Assembly (NCBI RefSeq): GCF_988243305.1
Contig: NZ_OZ547136.1
DNA length: 64,000 bases
Strand: one strand, 5' to 3'
Shown here: in pieces, positions 693 through 50,417 of the stretch
How the letters are laid out: each line of letters starts with the position of its first letter
Numbering within the stretch: position 1 is the first letter of the stretch
Notes under the pieces: model-generated
Seen by the model: the letters and a program-made list of their open reading frames with translations, nothing else
What the model was told of the DNA's origin: nothing
The model's database searches: none
Program-made: the position numbers and the translations under genes

Positions 693-1111
693 TTTAAATA
701 ACCCACAAACTGACCTTCTTTCATTAAGGCGACTTTTCCTGTGTGATGATAAACAATGACGTTATACAGACCTGACTGATAAACAGTGGCATCTTTATTG
801 TCTTCATCAATTGCACATAATGAATCATTGAGATAAGCAAAGTTTTTACTGCTCATTCTAAAGGTCATGCCAAATCCTTTATAAATGGCTTTCTTTGCCG
901 CCTGGGCATGTTGTGCGGCTTCTGCATTTTTAAATGCCTGCGCTTCGGATGCACTTAAAATAGCCGTCTGACGCTGTTGTTCTGCGAGATAACAGGTGTC
1001 ATGGCTGACGCCCTGCGCCTGGCAATCTGCGATGCGGGAAGTGGGTGAACTACAGCCAGCCAGTAATATAACCGCCAGCAGGGAAAACGATTTAATGGAG
1101 CTATTCATCAT
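689..1111 (-). CDS. putative lipoprotein (140 aa), co-transcribed downstream of the trimeric autotransporter
   Basis: Signal peptide with lipobox LLAGC; 53-bp gap to the upstream adhesin gene, same strand. Confidence 0.55.
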   Translation of the reverse strand: MMNSSIKSFSLLAVILLAGCSSPTSRIADCQAQGVSHDTCYLAEQQRQTAILSASEAQAFKNAEAAQHAQAAKKAIYKGFGMTFRMSSKNFAYLNDSLCAIDEDNKDATVYQSGLYNVIVYHHTGKVALMKEGQFVGYLK

Positions 1112-1164
1112 TGTTAACCTTAAATAATGTACGGAAAATTGCGAATAAGAAATTGCTGTTAAAA

Positions 1165-2181
1165 TTAGAACGAATATCCCACGCCGACACCCGCACCGAA
1201 ATCAGATTGTGTATCCGCAGAAATACCTGCTTTAAGTACCGTATGCGTTCCGGCATTAAAAGATGTTCCTACAGACACCGCAGATTCACCGTTGAACGTT
1301 CCCGCTCCCGCTGACACCATCATCAAGTCACCGGTTTTCACCTGTGGTTGTGAGGCGATAGCGATGGCAGATGCAGTTCCCGCATTGGCTTCTTTACGAT
1401 TGTCCTCAACTTCGTTTTTCAGAGAATCGAAATGGTTATTGAGCGTGTTAATTTGTTGGCTGTTATCTGCGACCCGTTTTTGCGTGTTGGTTAACTGTTG
1501 CTGCGTTTGTGCGGAATCTTGTCTCAGACTTTCAATTTGCTCATGTGCCTGGACAGACTTCTGCGCCAGACTTTGCATTTGTTTATCGTATTGAGCCCTT
1601 TCTTTTTGCTGTTGTGCTGCCACATCGGTTGTCAGTGCATTCATTTTCTGCCCTTGTTCCGTGGTAGTGCGCTGATTAGCCTCATTTTGAGCCGCCAGCC
1701 TGGCATTAATCATCTCCTGATAATGCGCGGTATTTTGCGTATCTCCAGTCGCGGCGAGCGTTTTTTGTGTGGCTACGATCTGCGCCTGTTGCTCTGTAAT
1801 TTGCGTTTGCTGGGCATCAGTTACCGCAGACTGTCGGGCGTTGATCATGCTCTGATAACGGGCGGTTGTCTGTACATCACCTGTAGCGGCAACGGTTTTT
1901 TGTCCTGCGTCAGGATCTGTCTGGACAGGGGGAGTCTGAGTGGTATCAGGTGTTTCAGAAGGGATGTAGTGATGTTCAGTCAAATAGGTATACGCAGCGG
2001 GGCTGTTGTCTGTGCGTTCTAAAAAGCGGGTAATCTTCTGCTCAATCTCCGATTGCGACATGCCAGAGTTAATGGCTGAAAGCTCTGTTGCCGCCGCTTC
2101 AATGGTATCACCAGCTAAAACAACAGGGCTGGATGTTGCTGAAATTATGAGTGCCAGTAAAGCTACGTTTACAGTTTTCAT
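1165..2181 (-). CDS. short trimeric autotransporter adhesin-like protein (YadA-type C-terminal anchor, coiled-coil stalk)
   Basis: 338-aa ORF; N-terminal signal peptide; C-terminus ...GESAVSVGTSF...FGAGVGVGYSF resembles the YadA membrane anchor; two tandem 45-aa stalk repeats. Confidence 0.7.
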   Translation of the reverse strand: MKTVNVALLALIISATSSPVVLAGDTIEAAATELSAINSGMSQSEIEQKITRFLERTDNSPAAYTYLTEHHYIPSETPDTTQTPPVQTDPDAGQKTVAATGDVQTTARYQSMINARQSAVTDAQQTQITEQQAQIVATQKTLAATGDTQNTAHYQEMINARLAAQNEANQRTTTEQGQKMNALTTDVAAQQQKERAQYDKQMQSLAQKSVQAHEQIESLRQDSAQTQQQLTNTQKRVADNSQQINTLNNHFDSLKNEVEDNRKEANAGTASAIAIASQPQVKTGDLMMVSAGAGTFNGESAVSVGTSFNAGTHTVLKAGISADTQSDFGAGVGVGYSF

Positions 2182-2214
2182 TCATTTTCTCTTGTTCAAA
2201 ATAAGTCGCATTAA

Positions 2215-2231
2215 TGTTTCTATAAGAAACA
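2215..2231. promoter_or_regulatory. inverted repeat TGTTTCT-ATA-AGAAACA in the adhesin/HTH divergent intergenic region
   Basis: Read directly; 7-bp arms; same half-site recurs at 2344-2362. Confidence 0.35.
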
Positions 2232-2343
2232 AATAATATTGTTTTAAGAAATAAACTGCGTTGCAATTTAATCGAAATCTACGCCGCCATTTGTGTGATG
2301 TAAAGCGCATTTTTGTCTGGTGTAAGCGTGAACACCACCAATA

Positions 2344-2362
2344 AGAAACAAAAAATGTTTCT
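2344..2362. promoter_or_regulatory. everted repeat AGAAACA-AAAAA-TGTTTCT in the same intergenic region
   Basis: Read directly; the 10-mer ATAAGAAACA occurs at both 2222-2231 and 2341-2350. Confidence 0.35.
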
Positions 2363-2547
2363 TATATAAATAAAATCGAAAATCATTTTGTGCTCTTTCA
2401 ATGTAAAAAAGAGTAAAGACTTGTTTTGATAAGCGAAATAAATTCTGTTTCTGGACTAAACGTGAAGCGGTTCCTGATGTGTGCTAAAATGCGTTTCTTT
2501 GATAAATCTCAATTTTTAAGAGGTTTACGCCAGGCAGGAAAATTTAA

Positions 2548-2910
2548 ATGAATGAATTTGAGAAGATTTTTAATGAAATGAATCTGGACCGGGCATTGCT
2601 ACCGATCCTTTTTCGTTCGAACCGGTCAACAGTGTGGAAATATTTAAGTGGCGATAGTACGGCTCCTGCCTCAGCTATGTCACTGATTATGCTGTTGCAG
2701 TTAATCCAGAAACGAAACCCCGATCTGTTAGCCGAATGGTTAACGCTTTCTGATTTCACCATTCCGCCAGAAGTTTACCTGGACCAGCCTGATTACTGGA
2801 AAGGGTGGGTGTATACGCAACACAAGGTCAATAAAAACGTCCTGGAATATCTAAAAAAACATTATCCGGATGAAGACCAAAAAAACATGAATAAAGGTAG
2901 TGACGAGTAA
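2548..2910 (+). CDS. hypothetical small protein (120 aa), possible HTH DNA-binding protein
   Basis: ORF divergent from the adhesin gene across a 366-bp AT-rich spacer; helix-turn-helix-like segment RALLPILFRSNRSTVWKYLSG. Confidence 0.45.
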   Translation: MNEFEKIFNEMNLDRALLPILFRSNRSTVWKYLSGDSTAPASAMSLIMLLQLIQKRNPDLLAEWLTLSDFTIPPEVYLDQPDYWKGWVYTQHKVNKNVLEYLKKHYPDEDQKNMNKGSDE

Positions 2911-2929
2911 TTTGCCAATGCCAGTTAAT

Positions 2930-3094
<165 letters not shown>

Positions 3095-3100
<6 letters not shown>

Positions 3101-3553
3101 AATGACCGCACGGATGATCAGCGTTATCCCTTCTATCGCAATGACTTCAACATGCGTACCTGCACCGAGATCCTCGCTGGCGCTGACAGGCCATGAACTG
3201 TCACCGACGCGCATATGACCGCGCCCGTTGACCAGTGGAGATTCCAGCACAAAACGTCGGCCAATCAGCTGCTGCCCGCGCTGGTTTAAATGACTGTCGC
3301 TGTGCTTTTGTTCGCGCACCCGCCGCGACAACCATTTCCACCACAGCCAGGCGGCGAGCAGCGTCAGGACGGCAAACATCACCCCTTGCCACTCCCAACC
3401 CAGCGGCACCAGCCAGACCACCAGGCCGGTAATCACCGCTGCCACGCCGCTCCAAAGCAGATAACCATTGCCGCCCAACATCTCGGCTGCCAGCAGCAAC
3501 CCGCCGAGACTGAGCCAGAAAATATGTGGATGAACGACCATTAACTCCATCAT
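3095..3553 (-). CDS. ybbJ: NfeD-like inner membrane protein YbbJ
   Basis: 152-aa ORF with N-terminal TM helices; stop-start overlap with qmcA. Confidence 0.85.
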
Positions 3554-4467
3554 GGCTGAGTCCGCTTGTTGGCGCTGTCTTTCACCAGCTCGGCAATCCC
3601 GGCAATCGACCCCATCAGGCTGCTGGCCTCTAATGGCATCATCACTACTTTGCTGTTACTGGACGAACCGATCTGCTGTAACGCTTCGGTGTATTTCTGT
3701 GCGACGAAGTAGTTCACCGCCTGAATATCACCGGAGGCAATGGCTTCAGATACCATTTTGGTGGCGCGGGCTTCTGCTTCGGCAGAACGTTCACGCGCTT
3801 CGGCCTGTAAGAATGCCGATTGACGTTCACCTTCCGCTTTCAGGATTTGCGACTGTTTTTCACCTTCAGCTTTGAGGATTTCCGCCTGACGGATCCCTTC
3901 CGCTTCAAGGATGTAAGCGCGTTTGGTACGTTCCGCTTTCATCTGCGCGTTCATTGAAGAGATAAGCTCTGCCGGTGGGCGCACGTCGCGAATTTCAATA
4001 CGGGTGACTTTAATCCCCCACGGGTTGGTGGCTTCATCGACAATACGCAGCAGGCGTGAGTTGATGCTGTCGCGCTGAGAGAGCATTTCGTCAAGTTCCA
4101 TTGAACCCAGCACGGTACGGATGTTAGTCATGGTCAGGTTGATGATCGCCAGCTCCAGATTGCTGACTTCATAAGCCGCGCGCGGCGCGTCAATCACCTG
4201 AATAAAACAGACTGCGTCGATGGTAACGTTGGCGTTATCTTTCGAGATAACTTCCTGGGAAGGGATATCGAGCACTTGCTCCATCATATTGATCTTGCGA
4301 CCAATGCGATCCATAAACGGCACCACCAGGCTTAGACCTGGCTGTAACGTTTTGGTATAGCGACCAAAGCGTTCTACCGTCCATTGATAGCCCTGCGGCA
4401 CGATTTTGACGCCCGCGCCGACAATGACCAGTGCGACAAAAATGAGAATCGGGATAAAGATAAGCAT
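3550..4467 (-). CDS. qmcA: SPFH/stomatin-family membrane protein QmcA
   Basis: 305-aa ORF; SPFH domain and C-terminal coiled-coil repeats ([29 protein letters not shown]). Confidence 0.9.
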
Positions 4468-9113: not shown

Positions 9114-11524
9114 TTGCACGTTGGTTCTGGCGCGAATGGCGTTCGCCGTCGCTATTAATTGTCTGGCTGGCGCTAAGCCTGGCGGTGGCCTGCGTGCTGG
9201 CGCTGGGCAATATCAGCGATCGCATGGAGAAGGGCTTAAGCCAACAAAGCCGGGAGTTTATGGCGGGCGATCGGGCGTTGCGCAGTTCGCGCGAAGTGCC
9301 GCAAGCGTGGCTGGAGGAAGCGCAAAAGCGCGGCCTGAAAGTCGGCAAGCAGCTGACTTTCGCCACCATGACATTTGCAGGCGACACACCGCAGCTGGCG
9401 AACGTCAAAGCGGTGGATGATATCTACCCGATGTATGGCGATCTGCAAACTAATCCCCCTGGCCTGAAACCGCAGGCGGGCAGCGTATTGCTGGCCCCAC
9501 GCCTGATGGCACTGCTTAACCTGAAAACAGGCGACACCATCGACGTGGGCGATGCCACCTTGCGGATTGCCGGAGAAGTGATTCAGGAACCGGATTCCGG
9601 TTTTAACCCCTTCCAGATGGCTCCGCGTCTGATGATGAATCTGGCGGATGTCGATAAAACCGGAGCCGTGCAGCCGGGGAGTCGGGTCACCTGGCGCTAT
9701 AAATTCGGCGGCAACGAGAACCAGCTCGACAGCTATGAGAAATGGTTGTTACCTCAGCTTAAACCCGAACAACGCTGGTACGGTCTGGAACAGGACGAAG
9801 GCGCGCTGGGGCGCTCGATGGAACGCTCGCAACAGTTCCTGCTGCTTTCGGCGCTTCTGACCTTGCTGCTGGCAGTGGCAGCGGTGGCGGTGGCGATGAA
9901 TCATTACTGTCGCAGTCGCTACGATCTGGTGGCGATCCTCAAAACGCTGGGGGCAGGGCGAGCGCAACTGCGTAAGCTAATCGTCGGTCAGTGGTTGATG
10001 GTGCTGGCGCTTTCAGCCGTTACCGGCGGGGCGATAGGCCTGTTGTTCGAAAACGTGTTGATGGTGCTGCTCAAGCCCGTTCTGCCTGCTGCACTACCGC
10101 CAGCCAGCCTCTGGCCGTGGCTGTGGGCGCTGGGCACCATGACAGTCATCTCGCTGCTGGTGGGGCTACGACCGTACCGCTTGTTGCTGGCAACGCAGCC
10201 TTTACGCGTATTGCGTAATGATGTGGTCGCGAACGTCTGGCCGCTGAAGTTTTATCTGCCGATTGTCAGTGTGGTGGTTGTGCTGCTGCTCGCCGGATTA
10301 ATGGGTGGCAGTATGCTGCTCTGGGCGGTGCTGGCGGGCGCGGTAGTGCTGGCTTTGCTGTGCGGTGTGCTGGGCTGGATGCTGCTGAATGTACTTCGCC
10401 GCATGACGCTGAAATCGCTACCTCTGCGCCTGGCGGTTAGCCGCCTGTTACGTCAGCCGTGGTCAACGTTAAGCCAGCTTTCGGCATTTTCGCTCTCCTT
10501 TATGCTGCTGGCGCTATTGCTGGTATTGCGTGGCGATCTGCTCGACCGCTGGCAACAGCAGCTACCGCCAGAAAGCCCGAACTACTTTTTAATCAACATC
10601 GCCACAGAACAGGTTACGCCGCTAAAAACGTTCCTCGCGGAACATCAGATAGTCCCGGAATCATTTTATCCGGTGGTGCGGGCGCGACTGACGGCGATTA
10701 ACGACAAGCCGACAGAAGGCAATGAAGATGAGGCGCTTAACCGCGAACTCAATCTTACCTGGCAAAATACGCGGCCCGATCATAATCCGATTGTCGCCGG
10801 TAACTGGCCGCCAAAAGCCGATGAAGTGTCGATGGAAGAGGGGCTGGCGAAACGCTTAAACGTTGCCCTCGGCGATACCGTGACTTTTATGGGCGATACC
10901 CAGGAGTTCCGCGCTAAAGTGACCAGCCTGCGCAAAGTGGACTGGGAAAGTCTGCGGCCTAATTTCTATTTTATTTTCCCGGAAGGGGCATTAGACGGGC
11001 AACCGCAGAGCAGGCTTACCAGTTTCCGCTGGGAGAATGGCAACGGCATGTTGACGCAACTCAACCGCCAGTTCCCGACCATTAGCCTGTTAGACATTGG
11101 CGCGATTTTAAAACAGGTCGGCCAGGTGCTGGAGCAGGTAAGTCGGGCGCTGGAGGTGATGGTGGTGCTGGTCACCGCCTGCGGTATGTTGCTGTTGCTG
11201 GCACAGGTGCAGGTGGGAATGCGTCAGCGCCATCAGGAGCTGGTGGTGTGGCGCACACTCGGTGCGGGGAAAAAACTGCTGCGCACCACGTTGTGGTGTG
11301 AGTTCGCCATGCTCGGGTTTGTTTCTGGCCTGGTGGCCGCAATTGGTGCGGAAACGGCGCTGGCAGTGTTGCAGGCGAAAGTGTTTGATTTCCCGTGGGA
11401 GCCAGACTGGCGATTGTGGATTGTGCTGCCGTGCAGCGGTGCACTGCTGCTGTCGCTTTTCGGCGGCTGGCTGGGCGCGCGGCTGGTTAAGGGTAAGGCG
11501 CTGTTCAGGCAGTTTGCGGGGTGA
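9110..11524 (+). CDS. ybbP: FtsX-like ABC transporter permease YbbP
   Basis: 804-aa polytopic membrane ORF, stop-start overlap with ybbA. Confidence 0.9.
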   Translation: MIARWFWREWRSPSLLIVWLALSLAVACVLALGNISDRMEKGLSQQSREFMAGDRALRSSREVPQAWLEEAQKRGLKVGKQLTFATMTFAGDTPQLANVKAVDDIYPMYGDLQTNPPGLKPQAGSVLLAPRLMALLNLKTGDTIDVGDATLRIAGEVIQEPDSGFNPFQMAPRLMMNLADVDKTGAVQPGSRVTWRYKFGGNENQLDSYEKWLLPQLKPEQRWYGLEQDEGALGRSMERSQQFLLLSALLTLLLAVAAVAVAMNHYCRSRYDLVAILKTLGAGRAQLRKLIVGQWLMVLALSAVTGGAIGLLFENVLMVLLKPVLPAALPPASLWPWLWALGTMTVISLLVGLRPYRLLLATQPLRVLRNDVVANVWPLKFYLPIVSVVVVLLLAGLMGGSMLLWAVLAGAVVLALLCGVLGWMLLNVLRRMTLKSLPLRLAVSRLLRQPWSTLSQLSAFSLSFMLLALLLVLRGDLLDRWQQQLPPESPNYFLINIATEQVTPLKTFLAEHQIVPESFYPVVRARLTAINDKPTEGNEDEALNRELNLTWQNTRPDHNPIVAGNWPPKADEVSMEEGLAKRLNVALGDTVTFMGDTQEFRAKVTSLRKVDWESLRPNFYFIFPEGALDGQPQSRLTSFRWENGNGMLTQLNRQFPTISLLDIGAILKQVGQVLEQVSRALEVMVVLVTACGMLLLLAQVQVGMRQRHQELVVWRTLGAGKKLLRTTLWCEFAMLGFVSGLVAAIGAETALAVLQAKVFDFPWEPDWRLWIVLPCSGALLLSLFGGWLGARLVKGKALFRQFAG

Positions 11525-11531
11525 TGTGATA

Positions 11532-11566
11532 AAGCCGTTTATTTCTACCTGGTAGATAAACGGCTT
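11532..11566 (+). terminator. hairpin downstream of ybbP (AAGCCGTTTAT...ATAAACGGCTT), left edge of the AT-rich island
   Basis: Inverted repeat read directly; weak T tract. Confidence 0.4.
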
Positions 11567-11692
11567 CATTATTAGTGCATCACGTAATTAAAAAATTGTT
11601 ATGCCCAAACATATAATTAATATACATTGCCAAATGAGTTGTTTATTAAGTTTATATTATATAATTAAAATCTATGGAATGGGTATAATCAT

Positions 11693-13696
11693 ATGGGTGA
11701 CATTATATATTTACGCATTACAGGGGAGCAACAAGGGGATATTTCTGCAGGATGCGGGACGCAAGCCTCTGTCGGGAATCGGTATCAACAGGGACATGAG
11801 GATGAAATATTTGTTTTTAGTTTTCATGGAGGAGTAAGTAACACAGGATTTGGCATTAATCATCAAACGATACAATTTTGTAAAATTCTCGATAAAAGCT
11901 CACCGCTGCTGATGAATTGCATTAATAATAACGAACGATGCCGTTTTGAGTTTTATTTTTATCGTATTAATAAATATGGAAAATGGGAAAGGTATTATTA
12001 TATTGAAGTCCGTGGTGCCACGTTAACTCAGAATCAGATTATAATAAAAGAAAATGAACTTGACTATCAATATATAACAATACACTACGAATATATCTAC
12101 TGTAAGCATCTTACAGCCAATACAGAATTTAGTTATTTACTCACACCTGAAAATTATAATCGCCTTTTCCCACCGACGCTCTTACCTGTTGAGGAAAAAC
12201 CAGAAATACCGCCTGAACGAGAAATTATCCTCACCATTGGTGTATTCTTTGATGGCACAGGAAACAATTTAACCAATACGAATTTACGTATGAGTTTTTT
12301 CCAACCAGAAACCTATGGTCTGGATGTCCAGGATTTGGCCTCGTTTAATAAACAATGTATGAGCAAGCAGGGTAAAACGGGATCCGGAGTACAGAGCTAT
12401 TTGAATTACTATACGAATATTCATTGGTTGAATGAGTTGTATCATAAAGATTCAGAAATAAATGCGGGGTCAGTAAAAATTCAACGTGAAATTTATATTG
12501 AAGGAATAGGGACTGAAAATAATAAAGCAGACTCTCTGATAGGAATGGGGTTAGGAAATAATGATACAGGGGTAATTGCCAAAACTGACCGTGCGATATC
12601 ACTGCTCCGTGAAAAACTGACGGAGATTGTTATTTCTTTAAAAGAGAATAAATTAGTAATTAAGTGTCTACAGTTTGACGTATTTGGCTTTAGTCGTGGG
12701 GCAGCAGCCGCACGGCACTTTACTAATCGCGTATTTGAGTGTGATCCCGTACTGATTAAAACCATTACGACGGCATTTCAGTCAGTTGAATATTTAGGTA
12801 AACCTTCCGGGGAAGTGCAATTTTTAGGTATTTTTGACACAGTTGCAGCCATCGGAGGGCTGATGGATGGTTTTGACCCTCATGATGGTAATAACTTTCC
12901 GGTAAAAGTGAAGTTACCGCCAGGTGTGGCCAAACATGTATTCCAGCTCACAGCAATGAACGAATGTCGCTATAACTTTTGCCTCAACAGCATAAAGGAA
13001 AGCTGGCCAGAATTAAGTTTCCCTGGATCTCATGCTGATATTGGTGGCGGCTATGACCCACTGGAAGATGAGTACCTGTTTTTAAGTCGCCCGGCGATTG
13101 CAACGGTACTGGGAAATGTGCCGGTGGAAGCGACAAGCGCTTACCAAAAAGCAGCACAGCAGGCAGAGTTATTGTGGCGCTATTCGACGCTGGCTCCGAT
13201 TCTGCCTTCTGGTGTCCTAAAAATTGAATCCAATATTGATGAAATAGCGTCGCCTGACCACTTAGGTAATGTGAGAAAACGGGTCGCTGCAGCGGTGACA
13301 TTTCGCAGAACGATCACCAATGACTGGTCAAAGATTGCGTTAAGAGTAATGTATGAAGTCGCTAAAGAGGCAGGGGTAGTATTTGATGCCATTTCTGTTG
13401 CTGATAAGGAATTAAAAGTTCCCAGTCATTTAAAGGTAATATGTGAAAAAGCAATTTCTCAGGGTAAAGCCGTTCTCTTGTGTACAGCGCCGATACCTTT
13501 TTCTGATGATGAGCTTAAAACCATTGGAAAATATATACACTGCTCTTCCAACTGGAATACCGTCGATTATCGATTAAAAAATAAGGTGTCTGCTGAAGTA
13601 TCAGCGTTTAAGACGTTTAGTTTTGTTAATCGGCCGGATGAAAATTGGACCAGAACTATATACGATATGCAAGGGAATAAACAAAATGGAATTTAA
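11693..13696 (+). CDS. Hcp-domain / DUF2235 (Tle1-like phospholipase) fusion protein, putative T6SS-delivered effector
   Basis: 667-aa ORF. Residues 1-~150 align with Hcp (IYLRITGEQQGDISAGCG...GHEDE...SPLLMNCI); FFDGTGN at residues 185-191; GFSRG (GxSxG) with Ser334; FDTVAAIG and HADIGGGY motifs; AT-rich relative to flanks. Confidence 0.8.
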   Translation: MGDIIYLRITGEQQGDISAGCGTQASVGNRYQQGHEDEIFVFSFHGGVSNTGFGINHQTIQFCKILDKSSPLLMNCINNNERCRFEFYFYRINKYGKWERYYYIEVRGATLTQNQIIIKENELDYQYITIHYEYIYCKHLTANTEFSYLLTPENYNRLFPPTLLPVEEKPEIPPEREIILTIGVFFDGTGNNLTNTNLRMSFFQPETYGLDVQDLASFNKQCMSKQGKTGSGVQSYLNYYTNIHWLNELYHKDSEINAGSVKIQREIYIEGIGTENNKADSLIGMGLGNNDTGVIAKTDRAISLLREKLTEIVISLKENKLVIKCLQFDVFGFSRGAAAARHFTNRVFECDPVLIKTITTAFQSVEYLGKPSGEVQFLGIFDTVAAIGGLMDGFDPHDGNNFPVKVKLPPGVAKHVFQLTAMNECRYNFCLNSIKESWPELSFPGSHADIGGGYDPLEDEYLFLSRPAIATVLGNVPVEATSAYQKAAQQAELLWRYSTLAPILPSGVLKIESNIDEIASPDHLGNVRKRVAAAVTFRRTITNDWSKIALRVMYEVAKEAGVVFDAISVADKELKVPSHLKVICEKAISQGKAVLLCTAPIPFSDDELKTIGKYIHCSSNWNTVDYRLKNKVSAEVSAFKTFSFVNRPDENWTRTIYDMQGNKQNGI

Positions 13697-14345
13697 TATA
13701 AAATTACTGTTTGTTATTACGTCTATGGTTCTTAACTTTAACGCAGCAGCGAAAGAAAAAATATCGTTGCTTGCACCCTATGATGAGTGGTATTTCAATT
13801 TTTTCTACCCTGATTCCCTACCAGCAAAAGTTACCTATGTGGAATTATTAGATACCGATGGCATCTATTATCAGTTCAGAACGCTGGCCAGTACTAATGC
13901 CAGTCCAGGAAGTGTTGGACAATGGAGCGAGAAAGTATCAGGGATGTCGTCAGTTTTTAATAAAGCCAAAAACCCACCAATGTCTATCCATTTTTGCTGG
14001 GATTCAGTGATTGATAAAAAAGTGTATGAAACCTGGATAACGCTGGCGGGAGACGTCTGGAAATTGATGCTCACACCTTATTCACCACCAGGCGATGGCA
14101 GTGAAAAATATTATCTACAGTATCTGTTAATCGGACTGGCTCCGGAAGGAAAAGTACGGGTATGGCTTGATAAACGTGACAAACCCAATATTCGCCTGAC
14201 GGATAAGCAGATTCTGATAGAAACGTTTTCAGGTGAAAAAATGGAAATGTGTAAAGGAATTTCCCGGCATGATTTTTCTCTTGGAGACGATGAATATGTT
14301 CTTGAGTTTATCAAAGATAAAAAATATCCCTATGGTAACTGGTAA
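13686..14345 (+). CDS. putative periplasmic immunity protein, copy 1 (219 aa, signal peptide)
   Basis: Start overlaps effector stop by 11 bp; cleavable signal peptide without lipobox; paralogue of next gene. Confidence 0.6.
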   Translation: MEFNIKLLFVITSMVLNFNAAAKEKISLLAPYDEWYFNFFYPDSLPAKVTYVELLDTDGIYYQFRTLASTNASPGSVGQWSEKVSGMSSVFNKAKNPPMSIHFCWDSVIDKKVYETWITLAGDVWKLMLTPYSPPGDGSEKYYLQYLLIGLAPEGKVRVWLDKRDKPNIRLTDKQILIETFSGEKMEMCKGISRHDFSLGDDEYVLEFIKDKKYPYGNW

Positions 14346-14351
14346 GTAACA

Positions 14352-15020
14352 ATGAAAATAATAGCTAAAATAATTTATAGATTAACCATTGCGTTAATGA
14401 TAGCCGGATCAGTCCAGACAGCAGCGAAAGAAAAAATATCGTTGCTTGCACCCTATGATGAGTGGTATTTCCTTTTTTTCTACCCTAATGCGCTACCGGC
14501 ACGAGTTACCTATGTAGAACTATTGGACACTGATGGTATCTATTATCAGTTCAGAACGCTGGATGCTACCGCTCCGAGTTCCACAACTATTGATCAATGG
14601 AGAGATAATCTTCGGGTTGGGGTGTTATCATTCAATAAAGCTAAAAATCCCCCTATGTCTATCCATTTCTGCTGGGATTCAGTGATTGATAAAAAAGTGT
14701 ATGAAACCTGGATCACGCTGGCGGGAAAAGTCTGGAAATTGATGCTAACACCTTATTCACCACCAGGTGGTGGCAGTGAAAAGTATTATCTGCGGTATCT
14801 GTTAATCGGGCTGGCTCCGGAAGGGAAAATAGGAGTGTGGCTGGAGAAACCTGATAAACCCAATATTCGCCTGACCGATAAGCAGATTCTGATAGAAACG
14901 GTTTCAGGTGAAAAAATGGAAATGTGTAAAGGCCGAAGTGTCTATAAAAATGGGTATTCTTACCCGGAAAGTACAAAAAACTTTATCAAAGATAAAAAAT
15001 ATCCCTATGGCAACTGGTAG
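14352..15020 (+). CDS. putative periplasmic immunity protein, copy 2 (222 aa, signal peptide)
   Basis: Tandem paralogue of 13686-14345 with long identical peptide blocks (KEKISLLAPYDEWYF; KAKNPPMSIHFCWDSVIDKKVYETWITLAG) and divergent middle and C-terminus. Confidence 0.6.
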   Translation: MKIIAKIIYRLTIALMIAGSVQTAAKEKISLLAPYDEWYFLFFYPNALPARVTYVELLDTDGIYYQFRTLDATAPSSTTIDQWRDNLRVGVLSFNKAKNPPMSIHFCWDSVIDKKVYETWITLAGKVWKLMLTPYSPPGGGSEKYYLRYLLIGLAPEGKIGVWLEKPDKPNIRLTDKQILIETVSGEKMEMCKGRSVYKNGYSYPESTKNFIKDKKYPYGNW

Positions 15021-15071
15021 TTAACCAGTTGCACAATTTCTTAAAGAGGCACGGAAAAGCATTTTTGTGGG

Positions 15072-16193
<1,122 letters not shown>

Positions 16194-49292: not shown

Positions 49293-49533
49293 AGTTACCA
49301 GTCTCATTGGATCGGACAATTTTCCGTTAGGGCGGTAAATTGTACTTGATACATGAAAATACGGGTTTTCTTGATTCAGACGCGCAGCGGTGTGCGTTTG
49401 TTTGCCGCTATAACGAAATAAATCAGAAAATCAGACGCGGTCGTTCACTTGTTCAGCAACCAGATCAAAAGCCATTGACTCAGCAAGGGTTGACCGTATA
49501 ATTCACGCGATTACACCGCATTGCGGTATCAAC

Positions 49534-49610
49534 GCGCCCTTAGCTCAGTTGGATAGAGCAACGACCTTCTAAGTCGTGGGCCGCAGGTTCGAATCCTGCA
49601 GGGCGCGCCA
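49534..49610 (+). tRNA. argU: tRNA-Arg (anticodon UCU)
   Basis: 77-nt cloverleaf GCGCCCTTAGCTCAGTTGGATAGAGC...GGTTCGAATCCTGCAGGGCGCGCCA with CU-UCU-AA anticodon loop. Confidence 0.95.
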
Positions 49611-49655
49611 TTTCTTCTTCATTTATCCCCGTCTTATCCGTTTCCGCTTTGCCCT

Positions 49656-50417
49656 TCACCACATCACTTTTTGTCGCTGTTTGGCGAGATAATTCAACGG
49701 TGTCAGGCCGTAAAACGCCTTAAAAACAGAGATAAAGTACGACGTGCTGCTATAGCCACATAATTGCGCTACCTGAGTGATATTTTTGTTATCCATCAAT
49801 AACATCTGTACGGCGTAACGCATACGACACTCTGTGACAATCTGGCTATAGCTGGTATTTTCGTTTTTTAATTTCTTTTTGAGCAGGCTGGGGCTTAAGC
49901 ATAGCGAACTGGCGACAATTCGCAGATTCCAGTAATGCTGAATATCGCTTTGAATAATGCGGCAGACGCTGTCGCGGACGCTGCTGCGTAAGATATACAT
50001 CAGTAGGGCAATAAACCGCGATTGCTCAAGAAAGTTAGACAATACGGTAAAAAGCAATGCGCGCGTCAACTCCGCTTCGCAGGGTTTGCTGGGTTGCTGC
50101 TTGCTGTGGTTGGCGGCTAGCCGGAACACTTCCGGTGTACGGCTATGACAAGCGATAACCGGGGTAGCCAGCCGCGACCAGGGCTTTACGCAGGTTAAGT
50201 TCTTATTTAAAAACAACAGATAATCGTTGATGATGTTGCGGTTGATGTGGGTGATTAATACGTGATTTAACGTTGAGAGTTCAATGACGTTATTGTTGCA
50301 CGCGAAGGCGGCCAGGTAATTTTTCGGAAGGGTAAACGTGGCATGGTTATTGACGCTTACCTCTACCTCTTTTTCGGTCAGGATCACCACGCAAGGTTCA
50401 CTGCTGCTCAATTGCAT
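49656..50417 (-). CDS. envY: AraC-family transcriptional regulator EnvY
   Basis: 253-aa ORF with C-terminal AraC HTH. Confidence 0.8.
   Translation of the reverse strand: MQLSSSEPCVVILTEKEVEVSVNNHATFTLPKNYLAAFACNNNVIELSTLNHVLITHINRNIINDYLLFLNKNLTCVKPWSRLATPVIACHSRTPEVFRLAANHSKQQPSKPCEAELTRALLFTVLSNFLEQSRFIALLMYILRSSVRDSVCRIIQSDIQHYWNLRIVASSLCLSPSLLKKKLKNENTSYSQIVTECRMRYAVQMLLMDNKNITQVAQLCGYSSTSYFISVFKAFYGLTPLNYLAKQRQKVMW

Follow-up and report, generated by a model that had tools for sequence, protein, structure and literature searches.

Tandem mosaic DUF2931 genes, a putative Tli1-type immunity pair, downstream of an Hcp-Tle1 effector gene in Escherichia coli

Within a 64,000-nucleotide window of Escherichia coli chromosome (contig NZ_OZ547136.1 of RefSeq assembly GCF_988243305.1; the window is the whole stretch of DNA analysed here), an island of low GC content (0.40, against about 0.50 in its surroundings) extends from 11.6 to 15.05 kb. 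It consists of three co-oriented genes: a type VI secretion system (T6SS) effector gene, in which Hcp is fused to a Tle1-like phospholipase domain, and two tandem genes of the DUF2931 family directly behind it. The present analysis suggests that both DUF2931 open reading frames (ORFs) very probably encode Tli1-type immunity proteins, which belong to an orphan effector island of the Hcp-Tle1 ('Hcp-ET2') kind. The two copies differ mainly in discrete segments, which occur in many combinations among E. coli strains.

The effector and the two DUF2931 genes

The effector gene (11693-13696, plus strand) encodes a protein of 667 residues that Pfam and NCBIfam matches identify as Hcp (TssD) fused to a Tle1-like (DUF2235) phospholipase domain, the 'Hcp-ET2' type. 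The Pfam domain T6SS_HCP covers residues 6-138 (E 2.2e-12) and T6SS_Tle1-like_cat residues 369-459 (E 3.7e-10), and the protein scores 125 bits against the NCBIfam model TIGR03344, for which the cut-off is 58.9. The nucleophile motif GFSRG is intact at residues 332-336, as the GxSxG element of the Hcp-ET2 architecture requires, and the RefSeq product name is 'tssD / Hcp family T6SS effector'. The original prediction for this DNA had placed a Tle-type lipase effector upstream of the tandem pair, and the two domains and the GFSRG motif bear it out.

The two adjacent ORFs have the coordinates and lengths that had been proposed for them: copy 1 (ORF1; 13686-14345, plus strand) encodes 219 residues and copy 2 (ORF2; 14352-15020, plus strand) 222. 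Both match PF11153 (DUF2931), ORF1 over residues 30-197 with an E value of 2.9e-27 and ORF2 over residues 28-220 with one of 1.5e-26. They are tandem paralogues, with 157 of 222 positions identical by BLASTP (71%, E 1e-115). Pfam scans returned PF11153 alone, leaving both proteins unmatched by the DUF3304 profile, and no NCBIfam model matched either. A PADLOC scan likewise matched the immunity ORFs to no catalogued anti-phage defence protein.

The three genes are tightly packed. The ATG of ORF1 at 13686 lies inside the effector gene, whose stop ends at 13696, confirming the 11-bp overlap described earlier; a Shine-Dalgarno-like AAGGGA stands 9 nt ahead of this ATG, and ORF2 begins 6 nt past the ORF1 stop. 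At the protein level both N-termini, by feature inspection, combine a basic n-region, a hydrophobic core of at least 10 residues and a c-region of small residues (NAAA|KEK in ORF1, QTAA|KEK in ORF2). The signal peptide of copy 1, MEFNIKLLFVITSMVLNFNAAA (13686-13751, plus strand), looks to be of the signal peptidase I type, with the hydrophobic core LLFVITSMVL (Kyte-Doolittle 2.75). Neither protein has a lipobox, because no cysteine precedes residue 104 in ORF1 or residue 107 in ORF2, and both thus lack the L-x-[AGS]-C motif that marks the Tli1 lipoprotein of enteroaggregative E. coli (EAEC). These features agree with the earlier claim of cleavable signal peptides without a lipobox, in copy 2 provided that translation starts at 14352. 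RefSeq starts a near-identical gene at the internal Met16 (equivalent to 14397), with loss of the signal peptide. The same is true of many DUF2931 genes in the second or a later position that the Prokaryotic Genome Annotation Pipeline (PGAP) reports as 207 residues long (WP_369775152.1, WP_059323208.1; for example locus L001, 5898-6521, and locus L002, 4212-4835). Sister alleles are annotated with 222 residues (WP_000704501.1), so the annotation is inconsistent, and screens that find immunity genes by localisation can be misled by it.

Divergent segments and their reassortment

The two copies form a direct repeat with a constant spacing of 675 nt, in which a repeat finder recovers blocks at 13744-13933 (83%), 13956-14255 (91%) and 14307-14350 (93%). 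Measured by segment, nucleotide identity is 0.90 in conserved block 1, 0.91 in block 2 and 0.97 in the tail formed by the last 12 codons, in agreement with the figure of roughly 90% first given for the shared blocks; it is 0.43 in the signal peptide, 0.51 in the loop and 0.31 in the C-terminal segment, three stretches that can hardly be aligned at all. Three places of sharp divergence had been named, and the divergent peptides quoted at the time are both found in the translations. The signal peptide and the loop stand as described. The third place had been drawn as the last 30 or so residues and is confined to residues 190-207; it is internal, because the final 12 residues, FIKDKKYPYGNW, are the same in both proteins.

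In copy 1 the hypervariable loop spans residues 68-93 (13887-13964, plus strand; 51% nucleotide identity to copy 2) and is of a type designated alpha, ASTNASPGSVGQWSEKVSGMSSV. Its hypervariable C-terminal segment, residues 190-207 (14253-14306, plus strand; 31% identity), is of type x, GISRHDFSLGDDEYVLE, and begins directly after the conserved Cys189. Both cysteines of copy 1 are also conserved in copy 2, where comparison of the segments places a loop of type beta, DATAPSSTTIDQWRDNLRVGVLS, at residues 71-96 (14562-14639, plus strand) and a C-terminal segment of type y, GRSVYKNGYSYPESTKN, at residues 193-210 (14928-14981, plus strand). With their signal peptides, called A in copy 1 and B in copy 2, the window pair thus reads A-alpha-x followed by B-beta-y.

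Substitution patterns separate the conserved from the variable parts. In the conserved blocks the nonsynonymous divergence (dN) is 0.04-0.05 and the synonymous divergence (dS) 0.35 (dN/dS about 0.12); both copies are intact and, on this comparison of their sequences, under purifying selection there. In the variable segments dS and dN are both saturated and about equal. A frameshift origin was considered and rejected: reading either copy in its alternative frames yields nothing that resembles the other, and x is not a frameshift derivative of y. The saturation of both rates and the lack of any frameshift relation argue that the segments were swapped as units, and not that they diverged by point mutation after the duplication.

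A survey of 16 E. coli loci, comprising the window and 15 further loci, shows how these units are distributed. Signal peptide type A occurs solely in the first array position (16 of 16 loci) and type B solely in later positions. Three loop types were found, namely alpha, beta (DATAPSSTTI[D/G]QWRDNLRVGVLS) and gamma (DSTIPVSTTIGQWQENLSGGMTA), together with two C-terminal segment types, x (ISRHDFSLGDDEYVLE) and y (RS[V/A]YK[N/H]GYSYPESTKN). Within E. coli the sequence of each type hardly varies, and all six loop-by-segment combinations are seen over array positions and strains. At least 10 distinct arrays are present, including alpha-x, beta-y (the window); alpha-x, gamma-y; alpha-y, beta-x, gamma-y; gamma-x, beta-x, beta-y; alpha-x, gamma-y, beta-x, gamma-y; and single alpha-y or gamma-y copies. 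The idea, suggested by the single-copy arrays, that a y segment is required was dropped, being contradicted by locus L006 (alpha-x plus beta-x).

Copy number varies as well. One, two, three or four DUF2931 copies stand behind the effector, and the 573 complete genomes that carry the immunity blocks hold 1764 copies in total, with a median of three per genome, which makes the two-copy form of the window a minority arrangement. Effector alleles that are identical or one residue apart occur with one, two, three or four immunity copies. In one locus (L025, 4228-6208; E. coli CUVET17-1136) each of the three copies carries a frameshift in the annotation, behind an intact effector, which may be an artefact of assembly quality rather than a real loss of immunity. 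The effector is itself mosaic in E. coli, with cassette-like replacements at residues 252-266, 308-325 and 566-612 (window and loci L001-L010 and L022-L026); residues 308-325 form the helix that leads into the nucleophile strand, just ahead of GFSRG. Pairing between effector cassettes and immunity cassettes showed no consistent association in the 16 loci, a sample too small and clonal for a firm verdict.

These observations change the account of how the pair arose. Spacers among copies are 6 nt long and free of effector remnants, and the repeat period is 675 nt, in the three- and four-copy arrays as in the window; extra copies would therefore have come from tandem duplication, unequal crossover or gene conversion, and not from capture of a foreign module. 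The suggestion that the second copy is an acquired, foreign orphan immunity gene is for this reason abandoned, since the copies are paralogues. The parallel suggestion that the localised divergence reflects diversifying selection on a recent duplicate gives way to one of discrete, reassorting cassettes in which dS is as saturated as dN.

The same mosaic extends beyond E. coli. In a comparison of cassettes in 106 close homologues, counterparts of alpha, x and y can be made out in Salmonella, Enterobacter and Kluyvera. Salmonella has alpha-like and gamma-like loops in all four combinations with x-like and y-like C-terminal segments, and Enterobacter reassorts at least three loop types and at least three C-terminal segment types. 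The E. coli alpha loop shares 13 of 23 positions with the Salmonella alpha-like loop and 4 of 23 with E. coli beta; among C-terminal segments, identity across genera is 7-8 of 17 within x, goes down to 5 of 17 in the looser class y, and is 1-3 of 17 between classes. Tandem pairs of Salmonella bongori and Enterobacter hormaechei, 74% identical, are mosaic at the same three sites. In the E. hormaechei pair (L013, 6001-6696 and 6730-7425) copy 1 has the lipobox LLVSGC and copy 2 a Phe at the position of the cysteine (LFISGF), so that lipoprotein and soluble forms coexist in one array. Many distant homologues carry L-x-[AG]-C, and the lipobox-bearing homologues in the alignment are at most 45% identical to ORF1. 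Column entropy is 1.31 bits in the loop and 1.23 bits in the C-terminal segment, against 0.44-0.59 in the blocks. The AlphaFold 2 (AF2) model of mature copy 1 is a beta-sandwich with a predicted local distance difference test score (pLDDT) of 90.1, in which the variable parts are mostly coil and of lowest confidence (pLDDT 76 for the loop block and 72 for the C-terminal segment block).

Linkage to Tle1 toxins and relation to known systems

Among 5426 complete E. coli genomes the immunity blocks occur in 573, of which 569 carry at least 80% of the whole island. Outside E. coli, DUF2931 homologues of Salmonella enterica (L011) and S. bongori (L030, 4335-5681) lie downstream of an Hcp-fused toxin, and those of E. 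hormaechei follow a VgrG-adjacent cargo toxin within the T6SS cluster. Three metagenomic or other lineages complete the picture, with homologues after a split Hcp plus Tle1, after a PAAR-fused toxin and after a standalone Tle1; one extra context ended at a contig edge and was left out as uninformative. In every informative context a PF09994 protein is encoded immediately upstream of the DUF2931 gene; overlapping frames and tandem pairs are both frequent. Homologues that routinely lack an adjacent toxin, which would have spoken against an immunity function, were thus looked for and did not appear among these contexts. The window has the same layout, ORF1 being co-oriented with the Hcp-Tle1 gene and overlapping it by 11 nt. 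In Salmonella, Hcp-Tle1 with one or two DUF2931 genes occupies another chromosomal site, between kdpA/DUF2517 and phr, and signal peptides are again position-specific, with a 220-residue form in position 1 and a 226-residue form in position 2.

Family membership, this linkage and published work on homologues together uphold the proposal that the ORFs are a putative immunity pair for a Tle-type lipase. In Aeromonas hydrophila the DUF2931 proteins encoded after Tle1 are immunity proteins, and both of two tandem copies are needed (PMC7245790); in Vibrio cholerae one DUF2931 protein bound and neutralised the toxin and an 80%-identical paralogue did not (PMC10395195). A. hydrophila Tli1/Tli2 and V. 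cholerae Tli1(tox-)/Tli1(tox+) share with the window proteins the DUF2931 family and a place downstream of a Tle1-family toxin; they have N-terminal signals, as predicted for the window pair. The paralogues in those species are about 80% identical, with small differences deciding protection (PMC7245790, PMC10395195). The V. cholerae paralogues belong to different strains and loci (PMC10395195), whereas those of the window stand in tandem, and A. hydrophila requires both copies (PMC7245790), whereas E. coli tolerates single-copy arrays.

The kind of module is already known. Within E. coli it has a counterpart in Hcp-ET2/ETI2, which is reportedly the work of Ma et al. (2017, in Virulence). As reviews summarise it, Hcp-ET2/ETI2 is a known E. 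coli module and a validated T6SS-delivered pair of the Tle1/Tli1 type with the immunity protein encoded downstream (PMC6730261, PMC6099711). To judge from these summaries, it shares with the window an Hcp N-terminus joined to a DUF2235/Tle1 domain, an immunity gene directly downstream, an E. coli host and a location outside the main T6SS cluster. The window's effector allele differs in being rare: one of 5426 complete genomes has an allele at least 99% identical (that one 99.9%), and the others are at about 95-96%; the validated allele is that of PE321. Neither the cassette structure of the immunity array nor its variation from one to four copies is mentioned in the texts consulted.

EAEC Tli1 (Flaugnatti et al. 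2016, as cited in PMC6099711 and PMC13133936) is, by those accounts, an immunity protein to a periplasm-acting Tle1 phospholipase, the role predicted for the window proteins; a close homologue (97.8%) has DUF2931 plus a lipoprotein signal (bioRxiv preprint 10.1101/2024.03.05.583533). A second, truncated copy, tli1b, is described next to tli1, as a second copy adjoins the first in the window. EAEC Tli1 is, in the same sources, an outer-membrane lipoprotein and its toxin a VgrG-delivered cargo, whereas the window proteins have no lipobox cysteine and the toxin is fused to Hcp. The DUF3304 Tli1 proteins of Pseudomonas aeruginosa (Tli1a) and Burkholderia thailandensis (PMC13133936) have the Tle1 immunity role and the beta-sandwich fold predicted for the window proteins, and a prominent loop that is predicted to supply most toxin contacts (PMC13133936); they are lipoproteins of a separate Pfam family (PMC13133936), and ORF1 and ORF2 fall outside it. 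The orphan arrays in V. cholerae T6SS auxiliary clusters also combine several immunity genes per effector with strain differences brought about by homologous recombination (PMC5361080). Those arrays form as one effector-immunity module after another is displaced, and their immunity genes belong to unrelated families (PMC5361080), whereas the window holds paralogues only and its array also recombines inside genes, reassorting two segments. Neither different families nor displaced effector 3' ends were found in the window or in the three- and four-copy arrays.

Function of the pair, competing readings and setting of the island

If the immunity reading is right, transcription of the operon would start upstream of the effector, copy 1 would be translated by coupling to the effector through the 11-nt overlap, and copy 2 by re-initiation 6 nt past the copy 1 stop. 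Both products would leave the cytoplasm through Sec and lose their signal peptides to signal peptidase I, yielding mature proteins that are predicted to be soluble periplasmic beta-sandwiches, possibly with a Cys104-Cys189 disulfide. In the periplasm, when Hcp-ET2 is injected by sister cells, the two proteins would bind its phospholipase domain and so block hydrolysis of membrane phospholipids. Unequal crossover and gene conversion in the roughly 90% identical blocks of the tandem repeat, with its 675-nt unit, would change the copy number, which ranges from one to four in E. coli. The same exchanges may also reshuffle loop and C-terminal segment, the window pair alpha-x, beta-y being one arrangement among many. 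The sequences themselves show that both copies are intact members of the family with features of export signals, linked to the effector gene and under purifying selection, and that copy number varies and cassettes reassort; toxin binding and neutralisation, the periplasmic location, the disulfide and any part of the cassettes in specificity are inferred.

Several points weigh against this reading. Neutralisation by the window alleles is a prediction from family and linkage, and assignment of the locus to the validated Hcp-ET2 locus rests on reviews and shared architecture. A complex was modelled with AF2 from the toxin domain, a 30-residue linker and mature ORF1, using a block-diagonal alignment with eight paired rows from different lineages. 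The model reached a predicted template modelling score (pTM) of 0.64 and a mean pLDDT of 74, and the confidence of the variable segments did not rise above that in the monomer model. This fused model gave no computational support for a specific toxin-immunity interface, and as a prediction it neither supports nor refutes a position of the variable segments at one. No T6SS core genes occur anywhere in the 64-kb window, so that the strain's capacity to deliver the effector is presumptive. In P. aeruginosa and EAEC, second immunity-like copies adjoining tle1 are reported to be non-functional (PMC13133936), and one of the window copies could therefore be inert.

This last point leads to a plausible reading, if one short of probable, in which a single copy is the working cognate immunity protein, most likely copy 1 with its coupled translation and its nearly constant alpha loop. 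The other copy would then be accessory, giving orphan-like protection against other Hcp-ET2/Tle1 alleles or serving no current function. Single-copy arrays behind the common effector allele (gamma-y in L005; alpha-y in L009, L024 and L026) imply that one copy suffices for viability, and the mosaic effector alleles that non-kin variants exist; the unprotective 80%-identical V. cholerae protein (PMC10395195) and the second copies reported as pseudogenes next to tle1 in PAO1 and EAEC (PMC13133936) point the same way. Against this, copy 2 is intact and its conserved blocks bear purifying selection, most genomes keep three copies, and lone surviving copies carry alpha or gamma behind effector alleles one residue apart, so that no single loop type is obligatory. 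The single-copy arrays behind an intact effector, found in E. coli and in Salmonella, also make it improbable that both copies are jointly needed as a two-component system like A. hydrophila Tli1/Tli2, even though protection in strain NJ-35 needed both DUF2931 genes downstream of tle1 (PMC7245790) and tandem pairs are common in several genera. Least likely by far is that the ORFs encode exported proteins that assist the effector in a different way, for instance as a periplasmic co-factor. The immunity role of the window alleles is, to be sure, drawn from homologues, and DUF2931 is without a solved structure or a detectable fold neighbour; yet family members neutralise and bind Tle1 in experiments (PMC7245790, PMC10395195), the T6SS adaptors known so far have no signal peptide and stay in the cytoplasm, and a gene directly downstream of a toxin with overlapping frames is the standard effector-immunity layout.

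What the variable segments do is a separate matter. They might be surface loops under no structural constraint, subject to drift and neutral shuffling, in which case the mosaic would be irrelevant to specificity. This is possible, if on the whole doubtful, and is consistent with their low confidence and mostly coil structure in the AF2 model, with a dN about equal to dS, and with the lack of association between effector and immunity cassettes in 16 loci. However, the segments fall into a few discrete types rather than a continuum, each nearly invariant in E. coli, and a type resembles its counterpart in another genus more than it does the other type within its own genome (alpha 13/23 against 4/23; x 7-8/17 against 1-3/17), which argues for constraint within each type. 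Discrete, conserved and trans-specific types disfavour pure neutral drift, although a role in specificity is not thereby proven. A bolder proposal, which we offer tentatively and consider rather unlikely as it stands, is that the array is a combinatorial immunity library. Here residues 68-93 (the loop) and residues 190-207 (the stretch behind Cys189) would act as two semi-independent specificity modules of ancient types shared across Escherichia, Salmonella and Enterobacter, with the roughly 90% identical blocks as recombination substrates. Were this so, unequal crossover would at once change copy number and make new combinations of loop and C-terminal segment, and a lineage could retune which mosaic Hcp-ET2/Tle1 alleles it resists, without foreign DNA.

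The module itself mainly confirms that a T6SS effector-immunity island can be recognised by reading raw sequence. Its wider value lies at the population level, in a locus present in 573 complete E. coli genomes, including those of sequence type 131 (ST131), with one to four copies, freely reassorting segments and a mosaic effector. Should the range of toxin alleles that are neutralised depend on these segments, the array would offer a compact natural setting in which to study the evolution of immunity specificity by intragenic recombination, and it might account in part for kin discrimination between E. coli lineages of the gut.

The gene order around the island is tesA-ybbA-ybbP, island, mnmH-allS-allA-allR-gcl. 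The gap between ybbP and mnmH (selU), window positions 11525-15071, is occupied here by the Hcp-ET2 island and in K-12 (522831-530131) by that of rhsD-ybbC-ylbH-ybbD; a toxin island in the same gap of K-12 marks this site as a hot spot for polymorphic-toxin cargo. Upstream of the effector a consensus scan found a promoter-like site, TTAAAA-18-TATAAT (11588-11617, plus strand; 10 of 12 matches), a candidate operon promoter. A terminator scan found a hairpin with a 9-bp stem across the copy 2 stop codon (15010-15032, plus strand), in the 51-nt gap that separates the convergent ORF2 and mnmH, and it may be a bidirectional terminator. Evidence of both kinds is weak, because the numbers of such sites in the region do not exceed the shuffled expectation. 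An Rfam search of both strands of 11400-15200, with E values up to 0.1, returned no RNA family. Minus-strand ORFs of 67-87 residues within the genes were set aside as spurious in view of the strong family matches of both plus-strand ORFs. Elsewhere in the window (about 1,100-3,600 and about 49,500-50,000), a short gene for a YadA-family autotransporter adhesin lies next to cueR together with three hypothetical genes, and the argU tRNA-Arg gene directly adjoins envY, a DLP12-type prophage being absent there.

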